From a virus, in the IMG/VR virus record IMGVR_UViG_3300035698_017726, positions 50,833-114,832 of that record: a DNA stretch of 64,000 nucleotides; one strand, given 5' to 3'. Below, piece by piece: positions 37,714 through 55,383 of the stretch. The position numbers and the translations under genes were made by a program. Below the pieces are notes generated by a model that ran no database searches, was not told the DNA's origin, and saw nothing but the letters and a program-made list of their open reading frames with translations. How positions within the stretch are numbered: position 1 is the stretch's first letter; each line of letters opens with the position of its first letter.

Positions 37714-37828
37714 GTGTTTCCCCTAGAGGAGTTTGAGGTTCGTCCCGGTCTCTCTTGGAGTCAAAGAAGAGAGCCCCAGAAATCCCAGGACATTCTTCTT
37801 ATGTCAGAAAACACAGTTAAAAAGAGGG

Positions 37829-39389: not shown

Positions 39390-39467
39390 ACTCCCTTAGC
39401 TCAGTCGGCAGAGCACCGAGGTTATCGACCTTGGGGGCCGCAGGTTCAATCCCTGTAGGGAGTACCA
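39390..39467 (+). ncRNA. Atypical tRNA-like RNA (6-bp anticodon stem, loop TTATCGA)
   Basis: Acceptor ACTCCCT/AGGGAGT-ACCA, normal D and T arms. Confidence 0.7.
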
Positions 39468-39472
39468 TTTTT

Positions 39473-39578
39473 GCGTGGGTAGCTCAAGGAGGCGCCAGGC
39501 TTCGGGCCTGGATTGCCGTGGTAGAGCGCTCGACTGACCGTCGAGAGGTTGGGGGTTCGAACCCTTCCCCACGCACCA
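39473..39578 (+). ncRNA. Atypical tRNA-like RNA with ~30-nt D-loop hairpin insertion
   Basis: GCGTGGG/CCCACGC-ACCA; insert CCAGGC-TTCG-GGCCTGG; loop CTGACCG. Confidence 0.7.
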
Positions 39579-39584
39579 TTTTCT

Positions 39585-39669
39585 GCGCCGGTAGCTCAGT
39601 GGCTAGAGCACCAGTCGTCCTTCGGGGCTTGGCTGGAGGGCGGGGGTTCGAATCCTCCCCGGCGCACCA
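39585..39669 (+). ncRNA. Anticodon-less tRNA-like RNA (arm capped by UUCG)
   Basis: GCGCCGG/CCGGCGC-ACCA; arm CCAGTC GTCC TTCG GGGC TT GGCTGG. Confidence 0.7.
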
Positions 39670-41098: not shown

Positions 41099-41169
41099 TG
41101 GAGCGGCCGAAGGGCGACGATCCCTCTACCTCGGCAAGGCGGCGCTCTACCAGCGTGAGCTACGGCCGC
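41099..41169 (-). pseudogene. Degenerate/short tRNA-Gly(GCC)
   Basis: GCGGCCG/CGGCCGC-TCCA, TTGCC present but about 5-6 nt missing from the anticodon 3' strand/variable loop; atypical T loop. Confidence 0.65.
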
Positions 41170-45862: not shown

Positions 45863-45937
45863 AGGATGACCGGTAGGTTTCGAAGCCTACATTGTACCGG
45901 CGACGGCCGGGTGCTTTGCGCTATTAAGCTACGGTCA
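45863..45937 (-). pseudogene. Degenerate tRNA-like element (4-nt anticodon loop CGTC)
   Basis: TGACCG/CGGTCA, D stem GCTT/AAGC, CCGGC/GCCGG, GTAGG/CCTAC; no CCA. Confidence 0.5.
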
Positions 45938-45938
45938 A

Positions 45939-48694: not shown

Positions 48695-48871
48695 CTATTC
48701 TTCGAGCTCCACCTCTAGTTCTCCGGGGTCGTCAGAGCTATCGTCTTTGGCGTCTAAGTCGAAGGTCTCAACCTGCTCTTCCGCCACGATCTTTGCTTCT
48801 GCCTGAGTATCGGCCTCGACGTCGAAGTTTACGCGCTGTTCTCTTCGGTACTGACATCGATATGTATGCAT
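48695..48871 (-). CDS. Small acidic hypothetical protein
   Basis: 58 aa MHTYRCQYRREQRVNFDVEADTQAEAK...; GGGAGAG RBS. Confidence 0.5.
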   Translation of the reverse strand: MHTYRCQYRREQRVNFDVEADTQAEAKIVAEEQVETFDLDAKDDSSDDPGELEVELEE

Positions 48872-48887
48872 AGTCTCTCCCTTTAAG

Positions 48888-48964
48888 TGGCGACCCCAGC
48901 AGGATTCGAACCTGCGGCCTTACGCTCCGGAGGCGTACGCTCTATCCAGTTGAGCTATGGGGCC
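48888..48964 (-). tRNA. tRNA-Arg(CCG)
   Basis: Loop CT-CCG-GA. Confidence 0.93.
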
Positions 48965-49029
48965 GGAGTGGGAGCTCGCGATGGCCTATTAAGGCACGCT
49001 CCCAACCAATCATATTCGTGTTTCAAAGA

Positions 49030-49106
49030 TGGCATGCCCGGAGGGAGTCGAACCCACGACAACTCGGTTCGTAGCCGAGTGCTCTGTCCAGCTGAGCTAC
49101 GGGCAC
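49030..49106 (-). tRNA. tRNA-Arg(ACG)
   Basis: Loop CT-ACG-AA. Confidence 0.92.
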
Positions 49107-49117
49107 ACATACTTCTC

Positions 49118-49180
49118 AAAGAAAAAGGCCCCAGGAGAAAACTCCTGGGGCCTTTTAGCGTCGTCCTAAAGGACCCCAGG
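49118..49180 (-). terminator. Attenuator B: intrinsic terminator with competing antiterminator
   Basis: Terminator AAAAGGCCCCAGGAG-TTTT-CTCCTGGGGCC-TTTTTCTTT; CCTGGGGTCCTTTAG right after the leader stop is complementary to its left arm. Confidence 0.85.
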
Positions 49181-49270
49181 TCAGCTCGGCTCGTCATTGC
49201 GCACGATACCTTCTTGCTGCCGCTTAGCTGCGGTTACATGAGGCATCGTGGTTGGTCTGACGTCGAGCAT
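49181..49270 (-). CDS. Leader peptide B (29 aa, MLDVRPTTMPHVTAAKRQQEGIVRNDEPS)
   Basis: GAGGA RBS; 26 distinct codons in 29, almost all cognate to downstream tRNAs. Confidence 0.8.
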   Translation of the reverse strand: MLDVRPTTMPHVTAAKRQQEGIVRNDEPS

Positions 49271-49300
49271 CTGCGGGGTGTTCCTCTTGGTGACTCTATG

Positions 49301-49329
49301 GTTGTATAGAATCCTGGGATTCATGTCAA
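49301..49329 (-). promoter_or_regulatory. Sigma70-like promoter of tRNA operon B
   Basis: TTGACA-17nt-TACAAC. Confidence 0.7.
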
Positions 49330-49348
49330 CCATTCTGCAAGAATTCTT

Positions 49349-49894
49349 CTAGGTGCTGATGCGAGGCCTTCGTTCGTCCTGGGTAATCTTCTCTCTACGC
49401 CTAGATGGTTGCGTGACCTCGTAGACACCAGGTGTTCGAACCAAGATGATCCTCGGCTGAGCTTCTACAGCCTCCATGAGGAGCGGCATCATCATGGCCA
49501 TAGGGAAGCCGTCGGTTTCGGTGCAGCCGAGAATAGGAAGCATGATCTTCCCGCCCAGCAGCTTGGGCATCATTCTCACCAGCTCTGTGAGCCCGAACTT
49601 GATGAGTCTAGAGGAGACGTAGCTTCTCCAAGAGAGATGGGGCTTGGCGTTATTCCTTTCCCGCGTAGGAAAGAGGATCAGCCTGCCGTCCTCCCACTCC
49701 ATCGGTACCGCATCTCCCATGAGCTGGCATTGCTGCCCGTACCATTGAGGGAGCTCTGGGAAGAGAGCAGCGGCCTGTGCTGCGATGGTCAGGCCGCCCA
49801 TGACAGCTTCTCCGCGTTTGTTCCACCCTGCATTCGTGGGAACTACGATCCAGTCTTCTGGGTACGCCATTCTCCAGATGTTGCCTTCAAGCAT
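49349..49894 (-). CDS. Macro-domain (ADP-ribose-binding)-like protein
   Basis: IVVPTN...G.AVMGG..IA.QAA..FP, ILFPT, LPILGC. Confidence 0.65.
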   Translation of the reverse strand: MLEGNIWRMAYPEDWIVVPTNAGWNKRGEAVMGGLTIAAQAAALFPELPQWYGQQCQLMGDAVPMEWEDGRLILFPTRERNNAKPHLSWRSYVSSRLIKFGLTELVRMMPKLLGGKIMLPILGCTETDGFPMAMMMPLLMEAVEAQPRIILVRTPGVYEVTQPSRRREKITQDERRPRIST

Positions 49895-49908
49895 GTGGCC
49901 TCGGAGGT

Positions 49909-50312
49909 AAAAAGGGAAGGGGTCCGGAAGCTATTGCCCATCGTCCGGACCCCAGTTTGTTTATCGCGATTTCAACGCCTCACGGCTTTCGTCTCGGTTT
50001 AAGTTGACCATGACCGCTCTTTCGCTGAGCTACCGGGCCATAATGGAGGCCCGGACGGGATTCAAACCCGTGACTGTCTTGTTTAATCCGAGCACTGTGA
50101 TTGAGGCGACACGACGAATACTCAACTTGTCAGAGTTAGCTTGAACTTCATTGCCGTCTGTCCGATGGGCCCGATGCTCTACCGTTGAGCTACCCCGGCA
50201 TAGAATGGTGCCGGGGGACGGAATTGAACTCGCCTACCTTCGGGAGTATGGTGGACAGATTTTTGTGGCGTCAGATTCAGGTTCAGTTTCAGCTTGTCTG
50301 ATACGTTGATTC
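49909..50312 (-). ncRNA. ~400-nt RNA with two circularly permuted tRNA modules, hexamer repeats and a terminator
   Basis: T arm-CCCCGGC-ACCA-ttctat-GCCGGGG-D arm; T arm-CCGGGCC-TCCA-ttat-GGCCCGG-D arm; ends in a GGGGTCCGGA/TCCGGACCCC hairpin plus T tract. Confidence 0.75.
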
Positions 50313-50313
50313 T

Positions 50314-51054
50314 CTAAGAAAGGATGAACTCGAAGAGGGGCTTACCGACAGCCTGGGCGGGGGCTGGGGAGCTGTTGGCCTCTTCTCTGGCGATGTGGAC
50401 AGCCTGGCGCAGCTTGTTGACCTTCTCCAGCATGGCCTTCTTCTTCGAGGCGCTCATGCAGCCAGAGAGGTTGGTCGTGACCCAAGTGCCTTCGATGATG
50501 TCCTCGGTGAGCTCAGTCCACTGGGCTGGGTGCTTCTCAGTGGCTTCGACGACTACGCGAGGGGTCTTCACCTTCTTGGACTTGTAGGTCTCGGTGGGCT
50601 TGCCCCGATACATCCGAGTACCGTCGTCGTACGCCCAAGGCTCCGAGGGGTCCAGCTCTGGGATGCGGGCCAGTACGCCGGCCATGTCCTTCAGCTGCTT
50701 CTCGAGGGAGAGCAGGAAAGGAACAGGGGCGTCCGCCAGGAGGATGACGCCATCCACTTCGACGCTGGCGAAAGCACCCATGTTGGCGAAGTCCCTGGTG
50801 GCTTCGGCATCCATCAGGTTGGTCCACTGAAGGACGCACTGGTCCAGTACGTCGTCGGTGCGCTTCTGCACCAGGATGTCCTTTTCCTGGTACTTGATGC
50901 CGTCTTCCTCTGCGGGCGTCCAGGCCTTGGTCTGCCCCTTGAAGAGGTCAGCCTTTGCCAGTGCCTTGTAGAGCTTGCTCAGCTCGGAGTTCGCTGCGGT
51001 CTTCACGTCCTTCGTGATGGCGATGACGTGAGAAAGTCTGCTTTTCTTGGCCAT
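50314..51054 (-). CDS. Conserved hypothetical protein (resembles the DUF7873-type family, from memory)
   Basis: VPFLLSLEKQL, EATEKHPAQ and AREEAN motifs. Confidence 0.65.
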   Translation of the reverse strand: MAKKSRLSHVIAITKDVKTAANSELSKLYKALAKADLFKGQTKAWTPAEEDGIKYQEKDILVQKRTDDVLDQCVLQWTNLMDAEATRDFANMGAFASVEVDGVILLADAPVPFLLSLEKQLKDMAGVLARIPELDPSEPWAYDDGTRMYRGKPTETYKSKKVKTPRVVVEATEKHPAQWTELTEDIIEGTWVTTNLSGCMSASKKKAMLEKVNKLRQAVHIAREEANSSPAPAQAVGKPLFEFILS

Positions 51055-51294: not shown

Positions 51295-51600
51295 TTATAT
51301 CCTGCAGAATCGAATACCGAAGTTCTTGCCTTTCTTCGTGAATGTCCATGTTCCTGTAACCAGTCCGTCCTTGAATAGATACATGACAGAGTCCAGATTA
51401 GAGAGGAACATCGTGAACTCTTTCTGGGTGAGCACGTCCTGGAAGACGGCGTAAGCCGCGCTCCGTCCTCGGTTGAACCTCAAGAATCGCAGAGTAGCGT
51501 CGAACTCGTAGATATCGATCCACTGCGAGCTGTTGTAGAGGCTCGGGTAGTGCTCTTGGTTCCCGTTCTTGTCGAAGGGTACTTTTCTGTCCCAGACCAT
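51295..51600 (-). CDS. Hypothetical protein
   Basis: RGRSAA and WTF.KKG.NFGI motifs. Confidence 0.55.
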   Translation of the reverse strand: MVWDRKVPFDKNGNQEHYPSLYNSSQWIDIYEFDATLRFLRFNRGRSAAYAVFQDVLTQKEFTMFLSNLDSVMYLFKDGLVTGTWTFTKKGKNFGIRFCRI

Positions 51601-52777: not shown

Positions 52778-52865
52778 TGGCGGAGAGTGAGGGATTCGAA
52801 CCCTCGTACCTTACGGCGCACCGCTTAGCAGGCGGGCCTCTTTGTCCTATCTCGAGCAACTCTCC
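52778..52865 (-). tRNA. tRNA-Ser(GCT)
   Basis: Loop CT-GCT-AA. Confidence 0.9.
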
Positions 52866-53167
52866 TAATTTCCGTCTTTTGGGAACTCTTCGACTACCCC
52901 TCCGATGGGGGTGCGGGTACCAAACATCTCCTCCATCTTGTCGTTGTCCACATACATCTTGGTGATGGTACCTGCGACGCCTCTTTTTCCTTCATCAAAG
53001 AGGATAACTGGTGCCTGTTCCCCGTTTCTTTTGTGCGCCTCAATCACAGCTTTGTCGTAGTAGTTCGTGCCCTTCATGCGGACAGGACCCATGTTCTTAG
53101 CCCTCTCTCCGGGGCAGACGATGTACCAGTGGTCCCCGCGTGCTTCGACGGTCCACTTCTTATCCAT
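52865..53167 (-). CDS. Hypothetical protein
   Basis: 100-aa ORF. Confidence 0.45.
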   Translation of the reverse strand: MDKKWTVEARGDHWYIVCPGERAKNMGPVRMKGTNYYDKAVIEAHKRNGEQAPVILFDEGKRGVAGTITKMYVDNDKMEEMFGTRTPIGGVVEEFPKDGN

Positions 53168-55269: not shown

Positions 55270-55347
55270 CTAGGCCCGCCCTCGGATCTCGGCCAGGAGG
55301 CTCGAGGCCCAATAGGAAAAGCAGGACAATGACATTACGCGGTTCAT
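55270..55347 (-). CDS. Leader peptide A (25 aa, MNRVMSLSCFSYWASSLLAEIRGRA)
   Basis: Codons 6-19 all cognate to the 14 downstream tRNAs; likely leaderless mRNA. Confidence 0.8.
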   Translation of the reverse strand: MNRVMSLSCFSYWASSLLAEIRGRA

Positions 55348-55353
55348 GCTCTT

Positions 55354-55383
55354 ACCCTAATGAGGTTCGTCTTCAGGTGTCAA
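55354..55383 (-). promoter_or_regulatory. Sigma70-like promoter of tRNA operon A
   Basis: TTGACA-18nt-TAGGGT; ATG 7 nt downstream. Confidence 0.7.

Follow-up and report, generated by a model that had tools for sequence, protein, structure and literature searches.

The larger of the two tRNA gene blocks in this phage is probably gated by a leader-peptide transcription attenuator that samples codons, referred to here as element B. A short open reading frame (ORF) at the head of the block presents the ribosome with one codon for nearly every tRNA encoded behind it and is followed by a terminator that appears to be switchable, a combination from which it follows that the phage probably makes these tRNAs only when its ribosomes run short of them. 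The parts expected of such a device were found in the right order: a short ORF with a start codon and a ribosome-binding site, as read from the sequence, upstream of the genes to be regulated; leader codons cognate to the product of the operon (21 of 26 anticodons); an intrinsic terminator between the leader and the first tRNA; and, in silico, a mutually exclusive antiterminator that depends on the position of the ribosome.

Phage tRNA genes are commonly viewed as passive helpers in codon usage or as spares against tRNA-cleaving defences, and to our knowledge the control of their expression is essentially unknown. The sequence studied here is a 64-kb window (the whole stretch of DNA that was analysed, with a GC content of approximately 55%), which forms the second half of a 114.8-kb IMG/VR virus record with an estimated completeness of 62%. 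ARAGORN identified 44 tRNA genes in the window, and the conventional ones all lie on the minus strand and fall into two blocks. These blocks and one degenerate gene within them are as follows:

55184-51622, minus strand: tRNA block A, with five Leu and four Ser tRNAs, Tyr, Phe, Cys, Trp and Ala-GGC
49106-36521, minus strand: tRNA block B, with 28 genes, 26 distinct anticodons and interspersed ORFs (ARAGORN and Rfam)
41102-41169, minus strand: degenerate tRNA-Gly(GCC)-like gene, which scores 27.2 bits with the Rfam tRNA model, under the cut-off of 29

Block B begins with tRNA-Arg(ACG) and contains every tRNA that is not in block A. Under standard wobble rules the codon sets of the two blocks are disjoint, and the two combined read every sense codon but ATA, GGC and GGT. 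All readers of UNN codons (anticodons ending in A36: Phe, Leu-UUR, Ser-UCN, Tyr, Cys and Trp) belong to block A, as do all tRNAs with a long variable arm and Leu-CUN, Ser-AGY and Ala-GGC; the division between the blocks follows codon class, not chance order. Although a plus-strand unit (39390-39669) interrupts its 12.6 kb, we treat block B, as an assumption, as a single transcription unit.

Several other features of the region deserve a brief description. In the tRNA-Gly(GCC)-like gene, the acceptor stem is intact and CCA is encoded, but the T loop is non-canonical and the anticodon stem contains a mismatch; another weak tRNA-like match lies at 45865-45938. Between tRNA-Arg(CCG) and tRNA-Lys(CTT) there is a very acidic 58-aa ORF with a Shine-Dalgarno sequence (48695-48871, minus strand). 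This ORF has no terminator and encodes many Asp, Glu and Lys residues, the same amino acids as those of the tRNAs that follow it. A sub-threshold match to YrlA (Y RNA-like; 36.9 bits, E = 6e-5) at 49988-50094 on the minus strand is located directly downstream of the gene for a DUF7873 protein (50314-51054, minus strand), a family that adjoins tRNA arrays in many uncultured phages and is common in actinobacterial chromosomes too.

Element B lies immediately upstream of block B and consists of the following parts:

49324-49330, minus strand: GTTGACA, candidate -35 element of the leader-B transcript, with a putative function
49301-49308, minus strand: candidate -10 region, a weak match that reads TACAAC at 17-nt spacing or TATACA at 15 nt
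49281-49288, minus strand: Shine-Dalgarno-like AAGAGGAA, 12 nt ahead of the ATG at 49270
49270-49181, minus strand: leader ORF B, 29 sense codons plus TGA, with the peptide MLDVRPTTMPHVTAAKRQQEGIVRNDEPS
49180-49166, minus strand: segment 1, CCTGGGGTCCTTTAG, directly 3' of the leader stop, the 5' arm of the antiterminator
49158-49144, minus strand: segment 2, CTAAAAGGCCCCAGG, shared as the 3' arm of the antiterminator and the 5' arm of the terminator
49156-49112, minus strand: intrinsic terminator B, a perfect 15-bp stem (AAAAGGCCCCAGGAG and CTCCTGGGGCCTTTT) with a TTTT loop and a U-rich tail

The promoter and the translation of leader B are putative. On the minus strand of the 64-kb window, GTTGACA is present at two sites only, one ahead of each of two leaders (the second is that of a sister element described below), and the consensus promoter scan did not call the -10 element of leader B. 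The Shine-Dalgarno-like motif is of the same type as those of the phage's genes, although it stands 12 nt from the ATG compared to 5-9 nt in those genes. Since the reading frame is open upstream to an ATG at 49333 (50 codons), we infer the start codon at 49270; no Shine-Dalgarno sequence precedes the upstream ATGs at 49333 or 49324, and GTTGACA falls within the longer frame. The leader peptide, in its 50-aa reading, had no family match in Pfam or PHROGs.

A first-pass annotation of this DNA, made from the letters alone, had given the codon string of the leader, which matches the sequence exactly, and had counted 26 distinct codons among its 29, a count that is correct (ATG, GAC and ACC occur twice each). 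It had also held that nearly every codon has a reader in block B. This stands for 25 codons, of which 20 are read by Watson-Crick pairing and 5 more by wobble, with CTC and AGC excepted; what does not stand is the direct reader that had been assigned to GGT, because the Gly-GCC gene would read this codon by wobble only and is itself a doubtful, sub-cut-off tRNA-like gene. Block A supplies the readers of CTC (codon 2) and AGC (codon 29), and the reader of GCT is its Ala-GGC unless Ala-UGC reads U. Taken together, leader B samples 21 of the 26 distinct anticodons of block B and all 14 of its amino acids.

The match between the codons of leader B and the tRNAs of block B is statistically exceptional. 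When all 56,035 open stretches of 28 codons in the six frames of the window were scored for distinct block-B anticodons, leader B was the global maximum (21 of 26, with a median of 11 and a 99.9th percentile of 18). In random codon draws from the phage's own usage, the probability that at least 24 of 28 codons are read by block B was 0.010 and that of at least 26 distinct codons was 0.007 (joint probability 5e-6). Among composition-preserving shuffles, a count of 21 anticodons was reached in only 9e-5 of those that remained open. Leader B is T-poor (13%), and this accounts for part of its enrichment in block-B codons, which by itself had P = 0.053 in the composition-preserving shuffles. At the amino acid level, the presence of all 14 block-B amino acids with at most two residues from L/S/Y/F/C/W had P = 4e-4 in simulation, and only three places in the 64-kb window show this pattern. 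Synonymous choice, given the peptide, favours different isoacceptors in leader B (21 compared to a mean of 17.4, P = 0.021) and also in leader A of the sister element (P = 0.022). Elsewhere in the window, a count of 20 distinct block-B anticodons within 28 codons is reached at one place only, a 100-aa ORF in block A (52865-53167, minus strand), which is probably a real protein gene.

Among the terminator-like hairpins of the minus strand, terminator B is the strongest in the window. Its hairpin (49156-49123) is GC-rich, with a dG of -29.4 kcal/mol, and is located 17 nt ahead of tRNA-Arg(ACG). In a scan of the whole minus strand for hairpins followed by a U-run, terminator B and terminator A, its counterpart ahead of block A, were far above all others. 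The distance from the terminator to the first tRNA is 17 nt for block B and 32 nt for block A, and, as no promoter fits in such gaps, both tRNA blocks must be expressed by passing their terminators. The two terminators have a 15-nt tail, GGCCTTTTTCTTTGA, in common, which the window contains only at these two sites. At 37773-37791 on the minus strand, after tRNA-Met and approximately 1.1 kb ahead of the last two tRNAs, there is a weaker hairpin of the terminator type, GTCCTGGGATTTCTGGGGC with the tail TCTCTTCTTTGA; its arm and tail resemble those of terminator B, and it may be an internal operon boundary.

With regard to the switch itself, it had been proposed that the segment directly after the leader stop pairs with the left arm of the terminator, and that a ribosome at the end of the leader would mask this segment while a stalled one would leave the antiterminator in place. 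The pairing was found to involve 14 of 15 positions (13 Watson-Crick pairs and one G-U pair; dG -21.6 kcal/mol), and segment 1 is a better complement to the terminator arm than 99.95% of shuffled upstream sequences (P = 5e-4). The dependence on the ribosome was reproduced in constrained folds of the nascent RNA, in which a 28-nt stretch kept single-stranded served as a mimic of the ribosome. When the RNA extends to just past segment 2, the antiterminator is the minimum-energy fold either without a ribosome or with the A site at any codon up to 27, and it is gone only when the A site is on codon 28, codon 29 or the stop.

In the full-length RNA at equilibrium, the terminator is present at every position of the ribosome, and the fold consists of the terminator plus a pairing between the Shine-Dalgarno region and segment 1. 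Equilibrium folds with a stalled ribosome never give the antiterminator, and a purely thermodynamic switch was rejected for this reason; antitermination must be kinetic (co-transcriptional), like that of the classical attenuators, and would depend on a putative timing between ribosome and polymerase. The reason why the equilibrium fold always carries the terminator is that segment 1 has a second partner in the Shine-Dalgarno region. This partner, segment 0, comprises the Shine-Dalgarno region and CCCC (49277-49274) and pairs with segment 1 in the minimum-energy folds (AAGAGGA...CCCC with GGGG.UCCUUU), such that the 129-nt stretch from the Shine-Dalgarno sequence to segment 1 forms one long hairpin (dG -56.2, z = -6.4). 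With this pairing, the device becomes four-segmented and trp-like, the fourth segment being one that the first-pass annotation did not include.

The smaller block is preceded by a sister element with the same kinds of parts:

55384-55213, minus strand: putative attenuator A, comprising GTTGACA, leader ORF, segment 1 and terminator
55347-55270, minus strand: leader ORF A, with the peptide MNRVMSLSCFSYWASSLLAEIRGRA
55281-55272, minus strand: segment 1 of A, the last codons of the leader, GGGCGGGCCT, which pair with the left arm of terminator A
55247-55216, minus strand: terminator A, 32 nt ahead of block A (55184-51622)

Leader A has an unbroken run of 14 block-A codons (codons 6-19), which together sample 12 of the 14 block-A tRNAs, and the rest of its sensing zone contains no own-block codons. 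The sensing zones of leaders A and B use complementary codon sets (14:4 versus 2:23, Fisher P = 3.5e-6). In nascent folds of element A, the antiterminator is kept with the ribosome up to codon 19-20, codon 19 being the last of the own-codon run, and is absent once the ribosome has reached codon 21. In addition, each segment 1 fits its own terminator arm better (-23.8 and -26.0 kcal/mol) than that of the other element (-13.5 and -17.2 kcal/mol). Only the terminator and GTTGACA align between elements A and B, and homology of the two leaders themselves is thus unsupported. Element A also shows the layout TTGACA-N18-TAGGGT-N6-ATG (55345-55383, minus strand), which occurs once in the 64-kb window.

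In the proposed mechanism, transcription would start at or upstream of GTTGACA and yield a short mRNA with the 29-codon ORF. Once segment 2 has been made, segment 1 would pair with it, segment 3 would be kept off, and RNA polymerase would continue into the tRNAs. If a ribosome has come to the last codons or the stop by the time segment 2 appears, it would cover segment 1, whereupon the terminator would form and end the transcript 17 nt short of the first block-B tRNA. The putative physiological signal is the supply of the sampled tRNAs: shortage of any of them would slow the ribosome and leave the gate open, plenty would close it, and the outcome would be negative feedback on tRNA supply. The sister element would act in the same way for the complementary tRNA set. 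The pairing of the Shine-Dalgarno region with segment 1 would shut the leader after release and may terminate transcripts that were never translated. With a single codon per tRNA, the response should be weaker than that of classical codon runs and should come only with severe shortage.

Element B might instead be a translation-coupled but generic attenuator, which senses the overall speed or availability of ribosomes (as in host shut-off, starvation or ribosome-targeting stress) and not specific tRNAs, with the diversity of codons as a by-product of a hydrophilic, T-poor leader. We consider this quite unlikely. In its favour, one codon per tRNA makes a weak specific sensor; against it, leader A has a run of 14 consecutive own-block codons and none in the rest of its sensing zone. 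The T-poor composition explains part of the enrichment in block-B codons, but the number of block-B anticodons remains extreme after control for composition (P = 9e-5) and is the maximum of the whole window. The complementarity of leaders A and B (P = 3.5e-6) and the synonymous choice in favour of distinct isoacceptors in both leaders also argue for specific sampling. A further point on the generic side comes from phages of the DUF7873 neighbourhood, some of which have a unit of ORF, antiterminator and terminator before tRNA-Gln without codon sampling.

These phages were found by searches for relatives of the locus. A blastn comparison of 48800-50000 with GenBank phages matched the tRNAs and nothing else, and the neighbouring proteins (a 181-aa protein and the DUF7873 protein), used as single queries, had no close relative in IMG/VR. 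DUF7873 neighbour proteins with 54-56% identity do exist (P0002-P0005), of which P0002 and P0005 were not found in IMG/VR. A 17-mer of the shared terminator tail matched 62 loci, none of them beside tRNAs. DUF7873 profile searches covered IMG/VR, metagenomes and GTDB genomes; the relatives obtained were only 35-43% identical, and many of them were actinobacterial chromosomes. A total of 160 phage or metagenome DUF7873 loci carry 705 plus-strand tRNAs, the order of which shows no conservation, and in only 11 cases does a terminator lie 60 nt or less ahead of a tRNA.

Loci L033, L041, L060, L061 and L068 share a conserved ORF of 51-58 codons, the last codons of which pair with the left arm of a strong terminator located 8-13 nt ahead of tRNA-Gln. 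Codon sampling was tested for these small ORFs and was not significant. Thus, the architecture recurs, and the sampler is not general in the DUF7873 phage neighbourhood. Synonymous changes between these phages suggest selection on the 51-58-aa peptide, and the ORF could belong to a different translation-coupled gate or be a small protein gene. It has a good Shine-Dalgarno sequence and contains the motif SENxRI twice (for example, L061 6680-6886). When the 427 small ORFs that precede tRNAs across all loci were scanned in an exploratory way, nothing convincing emerged, and the best foreign codon-sampling match, in L053, was rejected as it lies inside an HNH endonuclease gene.

A second alternative dispenses with translation: the element would be a structured non-coding RNA gene made up of promoter, long hairpin and terminator, or the leaky terminator of the upstream gene, and the tRNAs would be made by constitutive partial read-through. 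There is little likelihood of this in our view. The long hairpin of 129 nt from the Shine-Dalgarno sequence to segment 1 (dG -56.2, z = -6.4), the poor Shine-Dalgarno spacing and an equilibrium fold that always consists of hairpin plus terminator are what an untranslated RNA might show; no Rfam family, however, matches beyond chance, and both the codon statistics and the position of the stop exactly at the edge of segment 1 would have to be coincidences, which would have been repeated at element A with a complementary codon set. Finally, the ORF might simply encode a small protein (of 29 aa, or of 50 aa if read from the ATG at 49333) and have its own terminator, the likeness to an attenuator being fortuitous. 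This is very improbable, for although the frame is open for 50 codons and related phages have small conserved ORFs and terminators between tRNAs, the product has no Pfam or PHROG match, no Shine-Dalgarno sequence stands before 49333 or 49324, GTTGACA is inside the longer frame, a strong terminator 17 nt ahead would silence the tRNA block unless it were conditional, and segment 1 complements the terminator arm more closely than shuffled sequences do (P = 5e-4).

If the codon-sampling attenuator is true, the phage has a self-regulating tRNA supply, in which the leader peptide reads the supply of the very tRNAs that are encoded behind it. Classic attenuation would then extend from amino acid biosynthesis to the decoding apparatus, and the element would represent a compact natural sensor of isoacceptor availability. 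A more speculative and, in our opinion, unlikely extension is that attenuators A and B make up a two-channel gauge of the tRNA pool, which replaces only the failing half of the pool and serves as a counter-defence sensor, not for economy alone. In such a gauge, channel A would watch the UNN-reading tRNAs together with Leu-CUN, Ser-AGY and Ala-GCC, and channel B would watch all others; loss from the pool might be caused, for example, by a host anticodon nuclease or by phage-induced loss of host tRNAs.

Leader-peptide attenuators of enterobacteria include single-amino-acid systems (the trp, his, leu and pheA leaders) and multivalent ones such as the thr leader (Thr and Ile) and the ilvGMEDA leader (Ile, Val and Leu). 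Element B resembles these in having a short ORF with cognate codons, an intrinsic terminator and an exclusive antiterminator that depends on the position of the ribosome, and its four segments, with pairing between the Shine-Dalgarno region and segment 1, are like those of trp in particular. It differs from them in several respects. The target would be tRNAs and not biosynthetic enzymes; 21 isoacceptors and 14 amino acids are sampled once each, whereas the amino acid leaders contain runs of one to three amino acids; leaders A and B divide the whole code between them; and the nascent default of element B is the antiterminator in the modelled folds, so that only a ribosome at the stop would close the gate.

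Two further types of control are comparable in part. The pheST attenuator of E. coli, with a pheM leader that contains Phe codons before the genes for phenylalanyl-tRNA synthetase, is similar in that a leader-peptide attenuator adjusts part of the translation machinery to the amount of charged tRNA available; in contrast to element B, the putative target of which is a tRNA array in a phage, it senses one amino acid and controls a protein-coding synthetase operon in a cell. T-box riboswitches recognise uncharged tRNA without translation, by direct binding to their specifier loop and T-box sequence. They share with element B a choice between terminator and antiterminator that is gated by the status of tRNA, whereas in element B an ORF is integral to the device. 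A permissive Rfam search of 35000-57000 found no T-box or other Rfam family, and the only matches near the element were chance-level ones to terminator hairpins.

The nearest item in the literature is an inducible tRNA array under a repressor, the trn operon of Anabaena sp. PCC 7120. According to the abstracts of two reports, this supernumerary array stays off under normal conditions, is switched on by impaired translation and is controlled by the transcriptional repressor TrcR, and no leader-peptide attenuator is mentioned in them (PMC8421152; PMC10272220). Full-text literature searches for leader-peptide attenuation of tRNA genes or of phage tRNA operons found none. The attenuation logic of element B is therefore classical, and the tRNA target, the design of one codon per isoacceptor and the pair of complementary leaders are undescribed in the literature that was searched.

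The closest likeness outside this phage was observed in phiCbK (JX100813), in which annotated terminators stand directly ahead of tRNA blocks, with attenuation not mentioned in the genome paper. Its block of Phe, Val, Ile, Ile, Val, Gln and Gln tRNAs is preceded by TTGACA-N17-TAGGGT-N7-ATG and a 32-codon ORF that contains QFVRQIQVVRNI, in which 9 of 12 codons belong to the tRNA block that follows (P = 5e-5), and the segment CCGGGCGGGCC pairs with the left arm of the terminator in the nascent fold. Thus, as in element B, there are a TTGACA, a short ORF in which the block's amino acids are over-represented, an antiterminator and a terminator, although segment 1 of phiCbK lies inside the ORF and that of element B after the stop. 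The TTGACA-TAGGGT-ATG layout (51305-51343) is like that of element A; in its general form, TTGACA-N17/18-TAGGGT-N6/7-ATG, it occurs twice in phiCbK. With this layout, transcription would start at the ATG or right beside it, an arrangement that points to a leaderless mRNA for the leader in both element A and phiCbK. The two phages are unrelated, and phiCbK differs in its GC content of 66%, its lack of a DUF7873 neighbour, its small blocks and its leaders with few amino acids. If the cultured phage phiCbK and its Caulobacter do carry an element of the same kind, the idea is directly testable, and the one phiCbK block that was re-examined here fits, by its motifs and predicted folds, a device of this kind.
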